Assembly (NCBI GenBank): GCA_046485285.1 | Contig: JAWOHE010000089.1 | Span: 32,449 to 96,448 of the forward strand | DNA: 64,000 nt | Direction: 5' to 3' | Source of the DNA: a bacterium | GTDB taxonomy: Bacteria; Hydrothermota; Tepidihabitantia; Tepidihabitantales; Tepidihabitantaceae | Part shown: positions 32,560-40,243 of the stretch, in pieces | Numbering within the stretch: position 1 is the stretch's first letter | How the letters are laid out: the number at the start of each line of letters is the position of its first letter | Notes under the pieces: model-generated | Databases searched by the model: none | The model's input: only the letters and a program-made list of their open reading frames with translations | What the model was told of the DNA's origin: nothing | Program-made: the position numbers and the translations under genes

Positions 32560-32935
32560 CGACCAACGTGGAGAAATCCCTCTCCGGGCTTGGTCGCGCC
32601 CTCCGCAGGAGCGACATCCCCTTCCACTTCGCTCAGAGCTTGCCCTGAGGGACTCGAAGGGGCAAGCTCTGTCGCAATTCGGTCCGGCCATCGCGGCTTG
32701 GAAGCCGCTCCTACGTCCCGACGGTTCCTGGTTCGCAGTTCAAGGTCCACAGTTCAGAACTCAGCGTTCAGCGCTTTCCCTTCGCCCACTCCTTCCCCTT
32801 TCGCTCCTCACCCTTCCCCATTTGCCTTCGTGTCGAAATCCCTCTCCGGCCTTTGCCCCCTCTCCGCTTCAGGGGAGAGGGTTGGGGTGAGGGGGCGCTC
32901 AAGCCATCGCGGCTTGGAAGCCGCTCCTACATCCT
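32560..32935. repeat. structured intergenic region: 30-bp direct repeat (GCCATCGCGGCTTGGAAGCCGCTCCTAC x2), perfect 12-bp inverted repeat (CAGAGCTTGCCC...GGGCAAGCTCTG) and CCCTCTCC/GGAGAGGG hairpin
   Basis: Read directly. No credible ORF. Lies between two minus-strand genes. Confidence 0.4.
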
Positions 32936-33208
32936 GAACCGCACGGAGCGCACACCCTCCCTCATCTCGAACGACGCGCCGCAGGCCCGCCTGCGCGCAA
33001 CGCGCGGGCAGGCCCGCAGGTAATCGGCAATCAGCCCCAGCGTCGGGCGCCGCAACCGGCCGTGCTCCAACTGGCTGAGGCGCGAGTAGAAGCCAGACTC
33101 GCGGCCCATAAGGTGCGCCAACGCGACCAGGCTCAGCCCGGCCCGAAACTGCAAACCGTGTAGCGCCGCACCCAACGCAACCGTCTCTCCCGGTCCAAAG
33201 CCAGCCAC
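32927..33208 (-). CDS. XRE-family helix-turn-helix transcriptional regulator
   Basis: 93 aa. 'GLSLVALAHLMGRESGFYSRLSQLEHGRLRRPTLGLIADYL' matches the XRE HTH pattern. Confidence 0.55.
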   Translation of the reverse strand: MAGFGPGETVALGAALHGLQFRAGLSLVALAHLMGRESGFYSRLSQLEHGRLRRPTLGLIADYLRACPRVARRRACGASFEMREGVRSVRFRM

Positions 33209-33218
33209 CTTCGCATCA

Positions 33219-33602
33219 CTATCCGTAGCCTATGTTAGTAGAAACTAACGACCTGGCCAATCGGGAAATCGTCACAATCGATTGAAAAATCAGCACTTCA
33301 TTCACCTCCGAATTTACCCCCTCCCCCATACCCCCTACCGTACCCCCTACCGTAGGGGGTACCGTAGGGGGAACCGTAGGGGGTACCGTAGGGGGAACCG
33401 TAGGGGGTACGGTAGGGGGAACGGTTAGCCCTACCGTTGGGGTAACCGTTAGCCCTACGGTAGGGGCAGCGGTAGGGGTAGCCGTAGGGCCTACGGTAGG
33501 GGTAACGGTTGGGGGAACGGTAGGGCATACGGCTGGGGGAACGGTAGGGGTAGCGGTTGGGGGAGTGCGGGTGGGGATGGGGGGTAGCGGGCGGGCAGCC
33601 AC
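33219..33602 (-). CDS. possible Pro/Thr/Val-rich repeat protein (PTVx)n encoded by the 12-nt tandem array; coding status uncertain
   Basis: 127-aa ORF whose stop lies 10 nt before the XRE gene. The central part is the translation of the period-12 array. Confidence 0.25.
   Translation of the reverse strand: MAARPLPPIPTRTPPTATPTVPPAVCPTVPPTVTPTVGPTATPTAAPTVGLTVTPTVGLTVPPTVPPTVPPTVPPTVPPTVPPTVGGTVGGMGEGVNSEVNEVLIFQSIVTISRLARSLVSTNIGYG
33320..33565. repeat. tandem array, period 12 nt (ACCGTAGGGGGT variants, about 20 copies)
   Basis: Read directly. Confidence 0.75.
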
Positions 33603-33739: not shown

Positions 33740-34040
33740 GCGCGTGGGCAGGAGCGCTCCGGGGGGTATACCCGGGGATATCCCCGGGACGGTTCCGGGG
33801 GCCGCCCCGGGGACCGTCCCGGAGGCCGCTCCCGGGGCCGTCCGGGGAACCGCTCCTGGGGATATCGGGGGGACGGTTCCGGGGGCCGTCCCGGGAGCCG
33901 CTCCGGGAGCCGTCCCGGAGGCCGCCCCGGGGGCCGCTAGGGGGGCCGTCCCGGGAGCCGCTGGGGGAGCCCGTCCCGGGAGCCGCTAGGGGAGCCGTCC
34001 CCGGGGCCGCCCCGGGGGCCGCCCCCGGGACGGCTCCGGG
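33740..34040. repeat. GC-rich tandem array, period ~12 nt (CCGGGRGCCGYC variants), flanked by 'gggtggggatgggggg' and 'ggggatgcggggggggataggggt' cores
   Basis: Read directly. Reverse-complement relative at 4795..4920. ORFs 33724..34158 and 33738..33989 are only its translations. Confidence 0.7.
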
Positions 34041-34188
34041 GATGCGGGGGGGGATAGGGGTCGGGCCGGGTTCAGTCGCCGGGGGTGCCTGTCTGTTCCT
34101 CCCGCGCGCGGATTCTACTGGCGCGCGGAATGAGCCTCCGCGCCTCGGGGGCTGTTAGGCGATGTCCCCGAAACCTCCCTGTCCGATG
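34041..34188. repeat. ~135-bp direct repeat, copy A1 (…GGGCCGGGTTCAGTCGCCGGGGGTGCCTGTCTGTTCCTCCCGCGCGCGGATTCTA…GCTGTTAGGCGATGTCCCCGAAA)
   Basis: About 90% identical to 35043..35175. Together they bracket the GIY-YIG gene. Confidence 0.65.
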
Positions 34189-34287
34189 AACTGATCCGCC
34201 AGCCAAGTTCCCCGCCGACCTTCCGCAGTTCAAGCGCGACTGACGCGCCGTCGCTGGCCGCTCATCGCGGCCAACTCGGCGTCCGAG

Positions 34288-34794
34288 TCAGCGAGGCTTC
34301 TGAGGGCTGTTCACCTCAGGGGACAGGTACTCGATGAGCGCGATCTCCAGCAAAGCTATCATGGTCTCCTCGCTCAACCACGCCGGCGGATTGGGGAAAT
34401 GCGCGCATACATCGGGCCGGGACACCAGACAGACCGGGATCAACCGCTTCCCGTGCTCTGAGTACTCCCAGAGCTTCCGGAAGACCGGGCTGTCGTTCGA
34501 CGCCTTGCGCGTCGAGTGTCGGTACAGCCGAGTAGCGAAGTCCATCACGCCCCGCCGCGTCTTGGTCGTCCGGCCCACGTACAGGATCCCGGCCCGACCG
34601 GCCAGCAGGATGTAGATGCCATCGGCCCGGTGCAGACCGGCCGGGTTGTCCAGCTTCTCTGCGAACCCAACCCCACCGCCGACCAACAGATGCCCGCACA
34701 CGCGCCGATACCACCGCCTCGGCCGCAACTCAATCGACGCCACGTTGTCCACGTGAGTGATGTAGTGCAGCTCCCTGACATCGGCTCTGGTCAT
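34288..34794 (-). CDS. GIY-YIG nuclease domain protein
   Basis: 168 aa. 'DGIYILLAGRAGILYVGRTTKTRRGV...RLYRH...LWEYSE' gives GIY-x10-YVG, then Arg and Glu, the catalytic-core pattern. Confidence 0.55.
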   Translation of the reverse strand: MTRADVRELHYITHVDNVASIELRPRRWYRRVCGHLLVGGGVGFAEKLDNPAGLHRADGIYILLAGRAGILYVGRTTKTRRGVMDFATRLYRHSTRKASNDSPVFRKLWEYSEHGKRLIPVCLVSRPDVCAHFPNPPAWLSEETMIALLEIALIEYLSPEVNSPQKPR

Positions 34795-35042
34795 TCGGCT
34801 GGCTCACTTCGCCCGGTCTTCGACAATCGCAATCTCAGCCATCGGCGGGATTCTAGGACTCGCGGTCAGGCGTGTCAATTGGGCCGGGCGGAATCGAGTC
34901 GTGGCCCGACAGCCGAGCCTCAAGTCTCACCCGCCGCCATCCCGGCGGCCGGCCGTGCCGCCAGCCGGGGCGAGGGTATGGCCGCCGCCGGGCGGGTGTC
35001 AAGCCCTGCGGGGGGAGCGGACGGGGCCGGGGGATGCGGGCG

Positions 35043-35175
35043 GGGGCAGAGACCGGGCCGGGTTCAGTCGCCGGGGGTGCCTGTCTGTTCCTCCCGCGCG
35101 CGGATTCTATCGGCGCGCGCGGAACGAGCCTCCGCGCCTCGGAGGCTGTTAGGCGATGTCCCCGAAATCTCCTGG
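35043..35175. repeat. ~135-bp direct repeat, copy A2
   Basis: See copy A1. Lies at the left edge of the low-GC island. Confidence 0.65.
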
Positions 35176-35181
35176 CGAGCC

Positions 35182-35574
35182 CTACTGGCGAGACGGCTCC
35201 TCGGGGTGATGGAGGATCAGGTCAAGCGCCCCGACAAACTTGTGGCTGGATTCCGCCATCTGCTGCGCATCGGCGCGCCCCGAAAGGAATCCATCTGCGA
35301 CAGCTCGGAACTCAGCGAGGTGGCGTTTATACATCTGCTGGGCACCTTCTGCCACCTGCATTCCGCGTGCCGTCATCTCAAGCCACAGGACTTTCCAAGT
35401 CAAGTAGTCCGTCGGTTCGGGCACAACCCTGTCGTCGCCTCGATTCATGAGTATGGCGGCGCTGCAGATCATCACAAAGCGGTTCAGGTAGCGTTCACCC
35501 TCCGGGCCAGCGAATCTCGTGACGGCGGCCATAGAAGCTGCTTGCCTCAGCAGCTCTTGAGCTTCCTTGTTCAA
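35182..35574 (-). CDS. hypothetical protein (130 aa), last gene of the island operon
   Basis: Protein-like composition in a ~55% GC context. Same strand, 80 nt downstream of the DUF4263 gene. Confidence 0.45.
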   Translation of the reverse strand: MNKEAQELLRQAASMAAVTRFAGPEGERYLNRFVMICSAAILMNRGDDRVVPEPTDYLTWKVLWLEMTARGMQVAEGAQQMYKRHLAEFRAVADGFLSGRADAQQMAESSHKFVGALDLILHHPEEPSRQ

Positions 35575-35654
35575 GATGTCCTCCTTGGCGTCATAGCAGA
35601 TCTAGTTGTTGATCTACTAAGTCCGGCCTTCGACAATCGCAGTCTCGGCCTCCA

Positions 35655-36659
35655 TCAAAACGGCGTCGAGTCGTGCACATCCTGCGGAAGCTTCCCCTGG
35701 TTCGGGTTCAGGATGCGCTTGGCCCTTTCCAGCACATGATCGTATGTGAGTATGGTGAGGTTGTGATAGCAGGAATTGAGGAGGCGGTATGTCTCTTGCT
35801 TGGGAGTATCCCACCCGGTCGAGCGGCCGTAGATGAGGACACATCGTGGCTTGATGGCCTTAACGCCTTGCATCCTCTCGGTGAATTCCAAATCGTTCAT
35901 CCTCCGTTCCACCTCGTGGATGTAGCGAGCGGACTGCGTGATTGCCTCGACTAGCTTCCCGGATGGTACGGGGTGCCCGCCGTTCGCTAGCTTCCGCCAG
36001 AAGCGTAGGTCCGGCGCTGGTTTCTTTATCTCGATTATGTCCACGAATCCATCGTACGCCTGCATGATGAAATCCGCCACATTCCCCACGTCGATTCTCC
36101 GCTCGTCCAGTACACGCACGAACTCACTCCCAAGGACCCAAGGGTTCGACTTGAACCAGTTCTCCCAGTCTGATTCATCAAGGTCTCGGCAGAGCATTTC
36201 CTCAAACTGCCTGACCGCCTTCTTATGTGACTGCAGTTGGATGCCTGCAGCTATCTCGTCGGGCAGAATCTCATTCTCGGCAATGAAACGCAGCAGGTCA
36301 GTCCTGTTGGGATTCGCGAATATTGCCCGCAGGTGCGCTAGGTTCTCGGCGTCGAATCGCTCATCTATGGCGATGTACTTGCGCTGGCCGCGTCGAAACG
36401 GTTCGTAGCTCTCCTGAAGGAAGCTGATCAGGGCGTCAAACTCGTCGTGGTCTAGAGTAAGCTCGCTCCGGGGTTTGGCGGTTTCGCATTTACCAGACGG
36501 TCGGTCGTATCGACCTATCTTCAGCCGAATATCCTCCCGCGGAGTCTTGTGGCTGATCTTCCAGAAGACCACCTTTGTGAACGTCTTCTTGGTTGTACGC
36601 AGAACCTTAGATAGGTAGTCTTCCAGTCCCGGTCTAGGGGCCTGCTTTGTCAGTGTCAT
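35655..36659 (-). CDS. DUF4263 (Shedu SduA-like) PD-(D/E)xK nuclease domain protein
   Basis: 335 aa from ATG 36659 (MTLTKQ). 'ESDWENWFKSNPWVLGSEF', 'RIDVGNVADFIMQAYDGFVDIIEIKKPAPDLF' (D..(D)-E-I-K), 'SGKLVEAITQSARYIHEV', 'PRCVLIYGRS'. This order of blocks matches DUF4263. Confidence 0.5.
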   Translation of the reverse strand: MTLTKQAPRPGLEDYLSKVLRTTKKTFTKVVFWKISHKTPREDIRLKIGRYDRPSGKCETAKPRSELTLDHDEFDALISFLQESYEPFRRGQRKYIAIDERFDAENLAHLRAIFANPNRTDLLRFIAENEILPDEIAAGIQLQSHKKAVRQFEEMLCRDLDESDWENWFKSNPWVLGSEFVRVLDERRIDVGNVADFIMQAYDGFVDIIEIKKPAPDLRFWRKLANGGHPVPSGKLVEAITQSARYIHEVERRMNDLEFTERMQGVKAIKPRCVLIYGRSTGWDTPKQETYRLLNSCYHNLTILTYDHVLERAKRILNPNQGKLPQDVHDSTPF

Positions 36660-36717
36660 CGAACCCCCAATCCAGACGTTACGTCCGGACCACTTCTGTG
36701 ACGCGAGCGTGACGTCT

Positions 36718-36927
36718 TCACTGCAGCACCCTTTTGAGGTCCGCCCGCCAGTCCTTGTCCGCGTATTCGCCTTCATCGAGAATCTGGAAGCGGAACTGCT
36801 CGTCTGCAAAGCCCTTGCCAAGCTCCTGCCAGGTTACCTTCTTGCCGACCTCCTCAAACACCCGCGCCACGGTGGCTATCAAGTAAGATGTCCCCGAGAC
36901 CCTTTCACTGCTTCTTTGCCTGGGCAA
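36718..36927 (-). CDS. possible small ORF (69 aa) between the two island genes
   Basis: Protein-like sequence 'VARVFEEVGKKVTWQELGKGFADEQFRFQILDEGEYADKDW'. Overlaps the GHKL gene end by 23 nt and the non-protein-like 5' extension of the DUF4263 frame. Confidence 0.25.
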   Translation of the reverse strand: MPRQRSSERVSGTSYLIATVARVFEEVGKKVTWQELGKGFADEQFRFQILDEGEYADKDWRADLKRVLQ

Positions 36928-38617
36928 ACCGGACGTCGAGCTTTTCCTCGAGGTAACACTTCAGCCGAATCACTTGGATCTTGGTCCTGGTGTTGCCGGC
37001 ATCGAGGTAGTACTTACTGGCGTCGGCATCTCCAGTCGGGTAGACGATGCGCCGTTTGGTTTTGTCGACGCTGGACTCGAGCTCAAACCCATCTTCGCAG
37101 TCATCCGTGAAGTCCCAGCAGACGACCCACCTGAGGTTGGTGAAGCCGTGGTTGAAGTTACGATGTCCCAATCTGTGCTTGAACTCGACGTACCCGTGGG
37201 GCAGTTCGGAGACTCCCGGGTTGCCTATGCTACGAGCGATCATGTCGATTCCCCGTGCTGTATTGTAGTCGCAGGGCAGAAACTCAAATAAGTCAGGGTG
37301 TTTGGCGTAGACTCTCATGAACAGCCCGAACAGCTCGGCCTCATTCTGCGGCTCCAGCACCTCCTGGTCGTCTATCGAGGCGCGGGCACGATACTTGATG
37401 CTCTTGACCCGGCTCTTGTAGTCGGTCTCCTCCTGCTTCTGTGTCCGAGCCTCCTCCTGCATGTTCATCAGCGCGTACAGCTGGTTCTTCAGGATGTCCC
37501 GATCCACGGCTTCGACCACCTCAGCTATGGCTATCTTGAGCCCAGCAGTGACTTGGGGGTCGGTATTCGCGAATGTGCCACGGTTAGCTGTGAGATTGAG
37601 TTCCTGGCAGTTCACGAAGCCATGCAGGAGTACCCAGGCGTTGCCGCCAGTTCCAAAGCTAGATATCCACTCATTGACTCGGCAGACCGGGATGTAGTCC
37701 TTGCAGAGCCAGATGCCGTATCTGTCGCCTACTTTGTATCCATCCGAGCCCTTGCGAAGCCGCTGCTTGATCATCGGATTGTATGCCCTCTTCGCCAAAT
37801 CCCCTTCGACGTAGATGACGGCCTCGTAGCGCACGTCGGGAAGGTCTTGCAGTACGTCAGTCTTGTGGTACCGCTTCACGAAGTAGTCGGCGGCGTCGTA
37901 GGAGTACCGGTCGAATAGCTTATTGAGGTCGGCGGCCTCCGGTGGGAACGGGTGGCCATGGGGTAGGGCCTCATGCTCCGCAACATCCAATCCCTTGAGA
38001 TGCACAGTTAGCTCTCGCTTCACCTGGCCTGTCAGTTCCTTCTCCACCGAGCCGGCTTTCGTGCACCACAGCACGTAGTCCTTCACGACACGCTGTGTAA
38101 ACGTGCCGCTTGCGTTGTTATTGTAGCCTTGGAGCTCTATCTCAGTGAACGTCTTGCCATCGTTGGGCGGGGAGACTTCCCACCACTCAGGCGCATGGAG
38201 TTCGTGGTTACAGAGCTTCCTGAAGGGGCGCTCACATTCCGCAGCGAAGGCCCCATCAGGACCAAGTGTGCTCACCCTGACCTTCTCTGAGTTGAGGAAG
38301 ATCTTGGTGCCATGGCCCTTCTCGCCGATCTTCTGCGAGTCGCCACGGGACTCCGAATGGCCCAGTCCCCAGAACGTCGCCGAGACCGCCTGCTTGGACA
38401 TTCCGGTGCCGTCGTCCCGGAAGCGGACTATCAGCGTTCTTGCGCCTTCCAGCCGTTGCGTCTCAAAGGTGATCCAGATATTCGAGGCTTCCCAATCATG
38501 CGCGTTGGATATTGCCTCGCGAACGGCCTCCAGCGGTTCCGCGAAGTCGTTCGCAATCTCGAAGAACTCCCGAGCTTCATCTACTGACGGCACCACTGTG
38601 TGTCTAGTTGTGTCCAT
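36905..38617 (-). CDS. GHKL-type ATPase (HATPase_c/MORC-like) with C-terminal DUF3883/PD-(D/E)xK-like region
   Basis: 570 aa. N box 'EAISNAHDWEASNIWI', G1 'RFRDDGTGMSK', G2 'KIGEKGHGTKIF'. C-terminal 'ARGIDMIARS...ELPHGYVEFKHRLG' (D...E-x-K). Low GC (~50-55%) compared with ~70% in the flanks. Confidence 0.6.
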   Translation of the reverse strand: MDTTRHTVVPSVDEAREFFEIANDFAEPLEAVREAISNAHDWEASNIWITFETQRLEGARTLIVRFRDDGTGMSKQAVSATFWGLGHSESRGDSQKIGEKGHGTKIFLNSEKVRVSTLGPDGAFAAECERPFRKLCNHELHAPEWWEVSPPNDGKTFTEIELQGYNNNASGTFTQRVVKDYVLWCTKAGSVEKELTGQVKRELTVHLKGLDVAEHEALPHGHPFPPEAADLNKLFDRYSYDAADYFVKRYHKTDVLQDLPDVRYEAVIYVEGDLAKRAYNPMIKQRLRKGSDGYKVGDRYGIWLCKDYIPVCRVNEWISSFGTGGNAWVLLHGFVNCQELNLTANRGTFANTDPQVTAGLKIAIAEVVEAVDRDILKNQLYALMNMQEEARTQKQEETDYKSRVKSIKYRARASIDDQEVLEPQNEAELFGLFMRVYAKHPDLFEFLPCDYNTARGIDMIARSIGNPGVSELPHGYVEFKHRLGHRNFNHGFTNLRWVVCWDFTDDCEDGFELESSVDKTKRRIVYPTGDADASKYYLDAGNTRTKIQVIRLKCYLEEKLDVRFAQAKKQ

Positions 38618-39043
38618 GTTCCTGTCTGCTCCCTAGGGTTGGCATTGCCCGCATCGTAGCGAGCGGGGAGGAGGTTGTCAAGCGAGTTGGTGCATCGTTG
38701 ATGGCTCGCGGTTCAGCGTTCACCGTACCGGGCCGTCCGTGTTCATCGGTGTCCACCCAGGGCTGACGCTCGGGGCCGGTATGGAGGGTCTGGCGCGGTA
38801 TCGCGCCGCGCACGGCTGGGGGAGGGCCCACAGCCGAATCGGCAGGCCGGGCGGAAGTAGCGCACAACCTGTCCACGACGCAGGTCGTGATTGACAACTG
38901 GCGAACAGCGGGTAGAACTGAAGCGCTGTACCAGGTGCAGGCTCAGGGCAGCGTGCTCTGGTCCACTTGCTAGAGCGTGCGTTCTATGGATTCCGGCGGA
39001 GCCGGGAGGTAGAATCTGGGTCCGTCCGGAGGTGCTGAGGGAG

Positions 39044-39697
39044 GTTTGCTTGCTAGGTGAAAGATGCTGCTACGAGACCATATCGGTCCTCGCGCTGGCA
39101 CTGTTGCTCGCTCATGGATGCGTTAGCGCCCCTGCAGTTCGCCGCTACCCACCGGACGATGTCATATGGTCCCCGCGGACTGAGTACGGAAGGGCGTACA
39201 AGAACCACAACGTTACACTCCTGACATCTCTCGTTCAGAGCATCCAGACTTCGCCTCAGCTCGGGTCTGCTACTCTGGAGCGGGAAGGACTGCTCGTGAC
39301 CTACCGCGCCGAGGAAGGAGACACCGGCTACTACCTGTCTGTACACCTCACCTGCAATGTGGTGTTCAACACGCTGCAGACCAACTACCTTCAGAGGGCC
39401 GCCAGCGCCTACTCGCGGATTCTCTTTCCATTTGCCTGCATTCTGGCTGAACACCCAGAGTTACTCGACTACGAGCGTATCAGCGGGGTTCTGGTGTGGC
39501 TCGATTGGCGGGCGACCAACTTCCTTGAGGACCGGTACAGAGTGTTTGCGCGAACCGAGGGGATGAATGCCTTTGTGTCAACGCCGGTCTTGAGGGAGTT
39601 CGCCGGCGAGAAGATATCTATTCAAGAACTCGGGCGCCGCTCCGTATTCACGTCTACCGGTGGGAGAACAGAACTTGACTTCAGCAACATCCCCTGA
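39044..39697 (+). CDS. hypothetical secreted/lipoprotein at the right edge of the low-GC island
   Basis: TTG start 6 nt after GGGAGG. Signal 'ISVLALALLLAHGC'. The track's longer ORF from 38891 overlaps a promoter-like region. Confidence 0.4.
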   Translation, partial: VCLLGERCCYETISVLALALLLAHGCVSAPAVRRYPPDDVIWSPRTEYGRAYKNHNVTLLTSLVQSIQTSPQLGSATLEREGLLVTYRAEEGDTGYYLSVHLTCNVVFNTLQTNYLQRAASAYSRILFPFACILAEHPELLDYERISGVLVWLDWRATNFLEDRYRVFARTEGMNAFVSTPVLREFAGEKISIQELGRRSVFTSTGGRTELDFSNIP

Positions 39698-40243
39698 CAT
39701 CGTGTCGGTGCTTGGCTGGTTATTTCCCGGTTCTCGGTCCCTCGGACCCGAGTCAGCCCTGGCCCACAGTCCGATAGCGGGTAGACGCGCTCGTGCGCCC
39801 TGCAGGGGGCAGGGGCTTGGCTTGACTCGACTAGTGCGATGTCCGGACGCGGCCTCCTGCCGAAGAGGAAGCAGTCCGTTGGCGAGGCCGAAGTACGCTT
39901 CGTCTGCAACGTCATACACCCGCGTCCGGCCGTAGTAGCACGCGGTCGGCCAAGCCCGGGCGACAGGGTGGGCTTGACCGGCGGGCGCACGATGGGCGGT
40001 AGCGTGCCGGGCTTCGGACGGACGCGGCCCGGAGCGGCGCGCTGACCAGAGGCCCGGACAGACCATCGTGATCGAGTGCCAAACGAGGAACTCAGTCGCC
40101 GGGCCAGGGTGAGCCGGGTGTCTGCCAGCCCGGCATCCTGTCTGGGGCCGGAGACGGCACATGCGATGGAGCAGGCGACCGAATGGGCGACCCGGCCCCA
40201 GTGCCGGCGGCGGGCTGGTCGCCGGGTCCGGGCTTCGGCGGTC

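Follow-up and report, generated by a model that had tools for sequence, protein, structure and literature searches.

The window analysed, a stretch of 64,000 nucleotides, contains a compact islet of five open reading frames (ORFs; Table 1). The genes for a 570-aa protein (the GHKL-nuclease), for the Shedu nuclease SduA and for a 130-aa protein (p130) follow one another on the same strand, with gaps of 245 bp and 80 bp respectively; the first gap holds a small ORF (p54), and a further gene (p215) is divergent from the GHKL gene. The GC content of the islet is 57.7% as against 71.0% over the remaining window, the 500-bp profile running at 0.55–0.63 inside 35250–39750 and at 0.70–0.78 in the flanks, and every other 2-kb bin of the window has at least 67.6% GC. 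Moreover, GC3 is around 0.70 (0.69–0.78 across the five island ORFs), whereas in the neighbouring genes (Lon-like, GNAT, YegS and P-type ATPase) the values are 0.92–0.95. The block is, in fact, compositionally foreign, and the lower GC claimed for it in the original prediction was borne out by both GC and codon usage. The predicted boundaries were also found: to the left, two direct repeat copies (143 nt, 91% identical) and two tandem arrays with a 12-bp period (33329–33564 and 33795–34041); to the right, between the convergent 215-aa and YegS-like genes, 546 bp (39698–40243) at 70% GC, close to the GC-rich 550 bp or so expected, where the ORFs are only of the overlapping kind common throughout the high-GC window.

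Table 1. Features of the islet and its left boundary (positions are those of the window)
Feature	Position	Strand	Basis or remark
Direct repeat copy 1	34030..34178	.	begins about 110 nt past the stop codon of a 168-aa ORF
Direct repeat copy 2	35030..35172	.	begins 10 nt past the p130 stop codon
Low-GC islet, horizontally acquired; p130, SduA, p54, GHKL-nuclease, p215	35182..39697	.	GC, GC3
p130, 130-aa orphan ORF	35182..35574	-	strong Shine-Dalgarno AAGGAGG 5 nt 5' of TTG start
SduA, 334 aa: N-terminal domain of about 160 aa and DUF4263	35655..36659	-	PADLOC, family profile vs solved structures
DUF4263 (SduA_C) PD-(D/E)xK nuclease domain	35733..36179	-	PF14082 match, invariant columns
p54, 54-aa ORF (69 aa from TTG at 36927), orphan, possibly not a gene	36718..36882	-	NCBI R6X12_09265
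GHKL ATPase - middle domain - coiled coil - PD-(D/E)xK-like protein, 570 aa	36905..38617	-	HATPase_c_3, homologues, AF2 model
C-terminal PD-(D/E)xK-like domain, residues 410-570	36908..37390	-	conserved residues
Two long helices, residues 354-409, joining ATPase module to C-terminal domain	37391..37558	-	DSSP on AF2 model
Middle (S5/transducer-like) domain, residues about 171-350	37568..38107	-	Foldseek
GHKL (Bergerat) ATP-binding domain, residues about 25-170	38108..38545	-	motif conservation, PDB profile matches
Promoter-like site TTGACA-17-TACGAT	38653..38681	-	consensus scan only; 36 nt 5' of GHKL start codon
p215, 215-aa predicted lipoprotein	39050..39697	+	NCBI R6X12_09275; signal peptide and LLAHGC lipobox

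The hypothetical protein p130 is carried in the NCBI annotation too. A homologue search over 1.84 billion representatives returned only the protein itself and two repetitive chance matches, and p130 is absent from all related GHKL and SduA loci; neither nuclease has it as a conserved partner. The 69-aa ORF suggested as possible corresponds in the NCBI annotation to a 54-aa protein forming a singleton cluster; the suggestion stood in so far as this shorter form is annotated, but p54, which has no Pfam match and lacks homologues at all 165 related loci, is an orphan and possibly not a gene at all. On the other strand, p215 is a real island gene, of island composition, which had previously been overlooked. 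This predicted lipoprotein has four homologues (38–52% identity), all of which show a signal peptide and an SGC or HGC lipobox; two of the four lie near toxin-antitoxin modules, and no defence partner was seen.

Shedu (SduA, DUF4263) is a single-gene anti-phage nuclease. The assignment of SduA to this group was confirmed by matches to the PADLOC model PDLC00385 (9.8e-120, profile positions 6–315 of 319) and to Pfam PF14082 (5.2e-20, positions 3–158 of 159). The protein has 984 homologues, D197, D204, D208, E211 and K213 are invariant columns, and the family profile matches the solved structures 8TI8, 8TI9 and 8PS4 at about 1e-12, the first two being B. cereus SduA structures and the third labelled only 'Shedu effector protein'. 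Since the homologues are 331–342 aa long, the ATG at 36659 is the likely start, as had been assumed. An unrelated gene follows the nearest relative (76%), and often (15–16 of 81 loci) the gene of this subfamily immediately precedes type III Mod+Res genes, in agreement with the report of Gu et al. that Shedu is embedded in restriction-modification loci. Judged from its sequence, SduA is a genuine and unremarkable Shedu, one of a short subfamily with many members.

In the 570-aa protein, a GHKL ATPase is joined to a PD-(D/E)xK-like domain. The protein exceeds the Pfam gathering scores of both HATPase_c_3 (3.4e-8) and HATPase_c, and the full N/G1/G2 signature attributed to it is intact: motif I (E34/N38/D41), G1 (D68xG70xG72), G2 (G98-E-K-G-H-G103-T-K) and the conserved T158 are invariant or nearly so across the homologues compared, 115 of them close and 38 distant. 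Against the PDB, a family profile picks up chains of MutL, Hsp90 and MORC3, and with the AF2 model (pLDDT 90.8) the Foldseek alignments to Hsp90, MORC2/3/4, SMCHD1 and TopoVI-B (410–440 columns, E 1e-13 to 1e-9) cross the middle domain, which is followed by the two modelled helices (H354–377 and H380–409, by DSSP). In the C-terminal domain E426, E428, D458, E478-x-K480 and H490 are conserved, and the E426/D458/E478xK480 set is kept, together with the GHKL motifs, down to 26% identity. The D...E-x-K pattern originally noticed there was therefore upheld, as a conserved E-D-ExK set of the PD-(D/E)xK-like kind, but not the resemblance to DUF3883. Although in DUF3883/NO VEIN proteins, too, a GHKL-type ATPase precedes a restriction-endonuclease-like domain at the C-terminus, PF13020 had no match in any of the 63 family members scanned, and this identity was rejected; the sole link is a weak match to a sacsin-type ATP-binding domain (2e-5, below the cut-off).

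At least 923 full-length homologues of this protein (45–58% identity) were found across phyla, and the family ranges over many bacterial phyla and archaea at 30–49% identity, a spread which points to lateral transfer. The nearest relatives looked up (55–58% identity) stand alone. Some homologues are alone between housekeeping genes, some adjoin type I/GmrSD or MTase+NmeDI-like restriction genes, some are located in prophage-like DNA, and one is carried by a Caballeronia plasmid, where antirestriction, toxin-antitoxin and methylase genes are close by. The GHKL-nuclease is regarded as a candidate defence protein from a large stand-alone family of bacteria and archaea. It might, on the other hand, be non-immune, that is, a repair or recombination nuclease, an unlinked restriction-modification component or a selfish/addiction-type gene, Shedu alone being defensive. 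In fact, many homologues are found among housekeeping genes and not in recognisable defence islands, several of them with no defence neighbour, the PADLOC v2 models gave only weak matches, taken as GHKL-domain derived, and GHKL+nuclease proteins such as MutL work in repair; a restriction-modification role was considered for the paraMORC3 proteins by Iyer et al. (PMC2292703). Nevertheless, a non-immune role seems unlikely in view of the sporadic cross-phylum distribution at high identity, of a shifting genomic context with some copies borne on plasmids or prophages, and of the recurrence of restriction or methylase neighbours. Furthermore, the closest architectural analogue, VcSduA, is a proven defence protein, and in this window the gene lies in foreign DNA with Shedu adjacent.

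The original prediction had joined the GHKL and Shedu genes into one multi-gene system. A cooperative system made up of the GHKL-nuclease, the small ORF, SduA and p130, in which, for example, the GHKL protein would sense or remodel DNA and so license Shedu, agrees with the shared strand, the short gaps and the uniform GC3. The consensus scan gave a single promoter-like site, upstream of the GHKL gene, and neither a terminator-like nor a promoter-like site was detected between this gene and sduA, and GHKL and DUF4263 are known to act together when fused. These features are compatible with the genes having been acquired and expressed together in this genome, where both genes may be co-transcribed. 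Nevertheless, the survey, covering a sample of representatives, gave no conserved pairing of the 570-aa protein with DUF4263 genes in either direction: a Shedu gene was found in none of 84 GHKL loci (SduA-family HMM, E<=1; flanks of at least 1.5 kb downstream in 66 and upstream in 75 of the 80 measured), and a GHKL gene (GHKL HMMs), like p130 and the small ORF, in none of 81 SduA loci, whose flanks are often short (at least 2 kb upstream in 37 of 80). Moreover, those close relatives of the GHKL protein that were examined are solitary genes, the GHKL protein has a conserved nuclease domain of its own, p130 and p54 are orphans, and the SduA subfamily, complete in itself, is common with no partner of this kind. 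The cooperative system is thus considered very improbable, and the claim of a joint system was not supported.

The defence-island signature, on the contrary, was sustained, being given by a foreign block with a genuine Shedu nuclease and a GHKL ATPase-nuclease. The locus is probably a small, horizontally acquired defence islet, in which two autonomous single-gene nucleases lie side by side by chance, accompanied by passenger ORFs. The absence of co-occurrence in both sets of loci, together with the recurrence of any neighbour cluster in four GHKL loci at most, indicates that the nucleases are independent, so that neither would need the other. The weak PADLOC matches and the many homologues amid housekeeping genes count against this explanation. 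By the known mechanism of its family, SduA would form a homotetramer through its DUF4263 domain, the N-terminal domain would keep the enzyme inactive, and only on sensing a sign of infection (free DNA ends, for example) would it cut the invading DNA. By analogy with GHKL clamps and with VcSduA, in which mutation of either the ATPase or the nuclease abolishes defence, the 570-aa protein would be a stand-alone ATP-gated nuclease: on binding ATP, the GHKL heads would dimerise and clamp the DNA, and the two helices would relay this change to the C-terminal domain, which could then cut. The GHKL-nuclease is a candidate variant of a known ATPase-nuclease kind of defence, next to an ordinary Shedu gene.

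Compared with described Shedu proteins, SduA is a full-length, autonomous member of PDLC00385 with all the invariant residues of the DUF4263 core, and nothing essential differs, although its N-terminal domain does not align with that of the B. cereus protein and, elsewhere, the subfamily sits upstream of type III Mod/Res genes and not beside a GHKL gene. As regards the 570-aa protein, the first 400 residues or so appear, from the model, to share the fold of MORC, Hsp90, TopoVI-B and SMCHD1, but with only 11–16% identity. A further likeness is the long helical connector that runs into a nuclease, comparable to the transducer of TopoVI-B and the A subunit to which it leads. Unlike in that group, the module here has a PD-(D/E)xK-like domain of its own in the same chain, and chromatin-reader or chaperone C-terminal domains are lacking. 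The link between GHKL and Shedu, originally called undescribed, is no longer so, since GHKL-DUF4263 fusions constitute Shedu type I-D (Gu et al. 2023, bioRxiv 10.1101/2023.08.10.552793, published in Mol Cell 2025), and phage protection by one of these fusions, VcSduA, a GHKL+nuclease protein, is lost with E27A or K557A (PMC12137116, Nat Microbiol 2025). Like these, the 570-aa protein is a single polypeptide from a stand-alone gene, with intact N-terminal GHKL motifs, a Hsp90/MORC-like middle and a C-terminal PD-(D/E)xK domain, and probably a dimeric clamp. This domain order, common to VcSduA and paraMORC3, would suit a divergent type I-D Shedu, and hence an island with two Shedu paralogues, but DUF4263 is not detectable in the nuclease domain of the 570-aa protein, and this is the least probable of the explanations considered. 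The paraMORC3 proteins combine GHKL, S5 and a C-terminal restriction-fold domain with E-D-ExK, and are often stand-alone genes of sporadic distribution with no conserved neighbourhood (Iyer, Abhiman & Aravind 2008, PMC2292703), all of which, when compared by description, applies to the 570-aa family. Nevertheless, paraMORC3 has been equated with the DUF4263-bearing architecture (PMC12137116), and therefore the GHKL-nucleases, in which DUF4263 is not detectable, may represent a sister family and not paraMORC3 in the strict sense.

The low GC content by which the block had been recognized was confirmed, 57.7% against 71.0% in the remainder of the window. In sliding 500-bp windows it lies at 0.55-0.63 at ~35.25-39.75 kb against 0.70-0.78 outside, and no 2-kb bin of the 64-kb window outside the block falls below 67.6%. 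GC3 is 0.69-0.78 in the five island ORFs, as opposed to 0.92-0.95 in the flanking genes compared (Lon-like protease, GNAT acetyltransferase, YegS-type lipid kinase and P-type ATPase), and this common GC3 suggests that the five ORFs arrived together. Between the right end of the island and the convergent YegS-like gene lie 546 bp at 70% GC. A mobile-element signature was rejected, as the window holds no tRNA genes, no integrase or transposase was found among the ten neighbouring ORFs scanned, and no direct repeat flanks the right side of the island. The NCBI annotation lists six genes here (R6X12_09250 to 09275), encoding proteins of 168 and 130 aa, a DUF4263 protein called at 305 aa, a 54-aa protein, a 570-aa 'ATP-binding protein' and, on the plus strand, a 215-aa protein; the minus-strand ORFs of the original prediction are thus all annotated, whereas the plus-strand gene had been overlooked. 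The coordinates of all these features are collected in the table.

Features of the low-GC island and of its left border (window coordinates)
Feature	Coordinates	Strand	Remarks
93-aa ORF	32927-33208	-	left edge of variable region
Tandem array	33329-33564		12-bp period, ~18 copies, GTAGGGGGAACG
Tandem array	33795-34041		12-bp period, ~20 copies, CCGGGGGCCGCC
143-bp repeat, left copy	34030-34178
143-bp repeat, right copy	35030-35172
Two cassette-like units	34030-35650	-	box, ORF, 143-bp repeat
168-aa ORF	34288-34794	-	R6X12_09250; between the repeat copies
Box of 168-aa unit	34840-34806	-
Promoter-like site of 168-aa ORF	34878-34850	-	TTGACA-17-TAGAAT
Low-GC island	35182-39697
130-aa ORF (p130)	35182-35574	-
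Box of p130 unit	35650-35616	-
sduA	35655-36659	-	334 aa
ORF matched by PF14082	35655-36821	-
54-aa ORF (p54)	36718-36882	-	69 aa from alternative TTG start
GHKL-nuclease gene	36905-38617	-	570 aa
215-aa ORF (p215)	39050-39697	+	predicted lipoprotein

The left border is formed by a direct repeat of 143 bp, the two copies of which are 91% identical and are the only full ones in 64 kb. Together with two boxes of 28-35 nt (83-89% identical), the repeats delimit two tandem cassette-like units on the minus strand, in which a box is followed by an ORF (p130 or the 168-aa ORF) and this by the repeat. Two rejected readings concern this element. Although its GCCTAAC fits the R'' consensus (RYYYAAC) of an integron attC site, R' (GTTRRRY) is lacking downstream in either copy, and no intI or other integrase was found among the ten neighbouring ORFs scanned. 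A role as structured RNA or terminator was likewise dismissed: the repeat contains two GC-rich hairpins, but it folds no better than shuffled sequences (z-scores -1.2 and 0.0), and no Rfam gathering score was reached in the region, where four sub-threshold miRNA-model matches fall in a tandem array (E 0.12-1). Both 12-bp-period arrays lie just left of the 143-bp repeats and are partly self-complementary, and in a minus-strand ORF the first would be translated as a (PTVx)n repeat. The 168-aa ORF has a near-consensus promoter-like site, a very weak GIY-YIG match (E 0.086), no plasmid homologue and a GC3 of 0.84, between those of island and host; the 93-aa ORF, also intermediate at 0.84, shows a weak XRE-type HTH_31 match (6e-4, below the cut-off).

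Within the island, the assignment of one gene to DUF4263 (Shedu) proved correct. Its ORF matches Pfam PF14082 (DUF4263/SduA_C) with 72.6 bits (cut-off 27, E 5.2e-20, profile positions 3-158 of 159) and, essentially over the full length of the profile, the PADLOC SduA model PDLC00385 (9.8e-120, positions 6-315 of 319), with 20 more PADLOC SduA models also matching. Since the alignment of its relatives begins at the ATG at 36659, the protein was set at 334 aa, close to the 335 aa first proposed; the 984 relatives retrieved from 5.8 billion proteins are mostly of 331-342 aa. Residues D197, D204, D208, E211 and K213 of the PD-(D/E)xK core, invariant in 21 homologues, are present in the window SduA, and the family profile matches the solved SduA chains 8TI8, 8TI9 and 8PS4 at 9e-13 to 2e-11. 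Judged by its sequence, the window SduA is a typical representative of a known, short Shedu subfamily and a predicted anti-phage nuclease. In 15-16 of 81 SduA loci a type III-like pair, Mod (N6_N4_Mtase) and Res (ResIII), lies directly downstream of SduA, in line with an earlier account of Shedu genes lying frequently within restriction-modification loci (bioRxiv 10.1101/2023.08.10.552793). One SduA locus, L096 (6001-11541), shows SduA upstream of Mod (598 aa) and a Res helicase (922 aa), as do 14-15 others, and its cluster also contains an SNF2 helicase and two Schlafen/AlbA_2-HATPase_c_4 genes.

The 570-aa protein carries the complete N/G1/G2 GHKL signature ascribed to it, both HATPase_c_3 and HATPase_c matching above their gathering thresholds. 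In two sets of homologues, 115 close and 38 distant (26-40% identity), the N-box (E34, N38, D41), the G1 box (D68-x-G70-x-G72) and the G2 box (G98-E-K-G-H-G103-T-K) are conserved, the Bergerat-fold motifs E34/N38, D68-G70-G72 and G98-G101-G103 being invariant or nearly so. The same two sets conserve a C-terminal group, E426, D458, E478-x-K480 and H490, to which the close homologues add an invariant E428. The family is large and tightly conserved: it comprises at least 923 clusters at 90% identity, nearly all of 560-580 aa, whose members from unrelated phyla share 45-58% identity with the window protein. Species-representative genomes contributed 141 loci, spread over many bacterial phyla and some archaea. 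In the AlphaFold2 model, which is confident (pLDDT 90.8, pTM 0.81), the first 400-440 residues align by Foldseek with Hsp90, MORC2/3/4, SMCHD1 and topoisomerase VI-B at E 1e-13 to 1e-9, in alignments of 410-440 columns that include the Hsp90 N+M and TopoVI-B ATPase modules. Because these matches run past the GHKL domain, an S5/transducer-like middle domain is placed after it, the arrangement of MORC/paraMORC-type proteins; two long helices (354-409) then lead into a compact C-terminal domain, which has the E-D-ExK motifs of the restriction-fold domain of paraMORC3.

This C-terminal domain is not recognizable as DUF4263, the nuclease of Shedu type I-D and VcSduA-like proteins. PF14082 matched none of 63 members of the family, the PADLOC SduA models none of the 25 members scanned, and profile-profile comparison with the SduA family gave a probability of 0.2%. 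DUF3883, which had been suggested instead, found no Pfam support either, PF13020 giving no match at E<=1 in 25 close members or at E<=0.01 in 38 distant ones. Against PADLOC v2 the family yields only weak matches, to REase_II, MzaB, TmtA and PbeC, which are taken to stem from the GHKL domain. The same C-terminal domain ends an otherwise unrelated 749-aa plasmid protein of Bacillus thuringiensis (hhalign 98.5%), and on account of this recurrence the nuclease domain is regarded as a mobile module in restriction-like settings. The 749-aa hypothetical protein is encoded on plasmid pH3-552 (locus L169, 4267-6516) beside a dcm methylase and a DUF3883 gene, and its N-terminal region matches no Pfam family; this suggests an undescribed restriction-like module.

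The original prediction combined both genes and the small ORFs into one multi-gene defence system. Co-transcription of the GHKL gene and sduA in this genome is possible, as the GHKL gene is preceded by the single promoter-like site found on this strand of the island, and the interval between the two genes showed no terminator-like site. The distribution of the families speaks against a system. No Shedu gene was detected, by tblastn and the SduA-family HMM, in any of 84 GHKL loci (80 from species-representative genomes plus those of the closest metagenomic relatives); this HMM still picks up the SduA of B. cereus (8TI8) and the Shedu protein of 8PS4, and at least 1.5 kb of flank was available downstream in 66 and upstream in 75 of the 80 loci. 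Conversely, none of 81 SduA loci (80 metagenomic loci of the subfamily and the contig of the closest relative, 76% identical) encodes the GHKL protein, its C-terminal domain, p130, the small ORF or the 215- and 168-aa proteins. All-against-all clustering of neighbours within 5 kb of the GHKL genes gave no protein family present in more than 4 loci. The small ORFs, proposed as conserved parts, are absent from all related GHKL and SduA loci, p54 (or its 69-aa form) being a singleton and p130 having no true homologue among 1.84 billion cluster representatives; p130 was therefore rejected as a conserved accessory or antitoxin. With zero co-occurrence in both directions and orphan small ORFs, the pairing hypothesis therefore fails its own test. 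The plus-strand p215 has the composition of the island and is a predicted lipoprotein (signal peptide and LLAHGC lipobox). Only four homologues were found among 5.8 billion proteins (the two named ones from Cloacimonadota and Ca. Hinthialibacter); toxin-antitoxin modules adjoin two of them, and the contexts are otherwise unrelated, so that p215 was rejected as a defence partner.

Relatives of the GHKL gene examined gene by gene always stand alone. Some are single insertions between housekeeping genes, amongst which many homologues of the family are found; one adjoins GmrSD, type I HsdR, transposase and AddAB-like genes, another an N6/N4 methylase and an NmeDI-like nuclease, and on a Caballeronia plasmid a relative lies between toxin-antitoxin, antirestriction and methylase genes. 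The Pfam/PADLOC families recurring most among the 144 immediate neighbours were helicase/ResIII, DpdF, restriction enzymes, integrases and ParE, none of them in more than 5 loci and with many housekeeping genes besides. Relatives also occur beside a terminase gene or within prophage-like DNA; carriage by phages was rejected, the family being absent from 50,697 phage genomes and found in only 3 IMG/VR loci. A haloarchaeal homologue of the GHKL and middle regions (518 aa, without the nuclease domain) is encoded on a Natrinema plasmid (L171, 4943-7545) directly downstream of a tRNA-guanine transglycosylase (DpdA/ArcTGT-like) gene, and on a Haladaptatus plasmid (H3) the match covers the same two annotations; these may represent a DNA-modification-linked GHKL system.

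The block is most likely a small laterally acquired islet of two autonomous single-gene nucleases, so that the defence module first proposed stands as an islet and not as a new multi-gene system. A two-gene system of Shedu and MORC would have mattered, and the evidence says that none exists; this underlines that adjacency and common composition are not evidence for a system. Two things remain, a clear-cut case of a defence islet reduced to a minimum, from an uncultured bacterium of high GC content, and a large cross-domain GHKL-nuclease family which PADLOC v2 does not recognize and for which we infer a defence activity. By analogy with the mechanism in the literature, the Shedu protein would be a tetrameric DUF4263 nuclease kept inactive by its N-terminal sensor domain. 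The 570-aa protein would act as an ATP-gated clamp nuclease, in which ATP would make the GHKL heads dimerise, as they do in MORC, Hsp90 and TopoVI-B, and the middle domain and long helices would relay this change to the PD-(D/E)xK domain. GHKL clamps are the ancestors of eukaryotic MORCs, and the family could help to explain how such clamps control nucleases.

For an ATP-gated clamp nuclease there is strong precedent, by analogy. In Vibrio cholerae, VcSduA, a GHKL ATPase with a C-terminal PD-(D/E)xK nuclease, validated only in 2025, protects against phage, and protection is abolished by the E27A (ATPase) or K557A (nuclease) mutation (PMC12137116). Fusions of this sort constitute Shedu type I-D of Gu et al. 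(bioRxiv 10.1101/2023.08.10.552793). The link between GHKL and Shedu-type nuclease, thought to be undescribed, had therefore already been reported, as a fusion and not as a gene pair. Moreover, paraMORC3 combines GHKL, S5 and a C-terminal restriction-fold domain with E-D-ExK, and is often a stand-alone gene without conserved neighbours (Iyer et al. 2008, PMC2292703). The Shedu gene is thus already known, and the GHKL-nuclease is a candidate variant of a known architecture. We consider it an evenly balanced proposition that the 570-aa protein represents a widespread family of stand-alone ATP-gated immune nucleases, in which a GHKL/MORC-like clamp is fused to a PD-(D/E)xK-like domain outside the Pfam and PADLOC models and distinct from DUF4263; prokaryotic immunity could then comprise a second ATP-gated MORC-like nuclease, of convergent origin. 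The family may correspond to paraMORC3 itself or be a sister of it that carries another nuclease module. It shares the architecture of VcSduA and paraMORC3, but its nuclease domain, unlike that of VcSduA and Shedu type I-D, is not detectably DUF4263; if the proposition holds, it would be their parallel, independently assembled counterpart.
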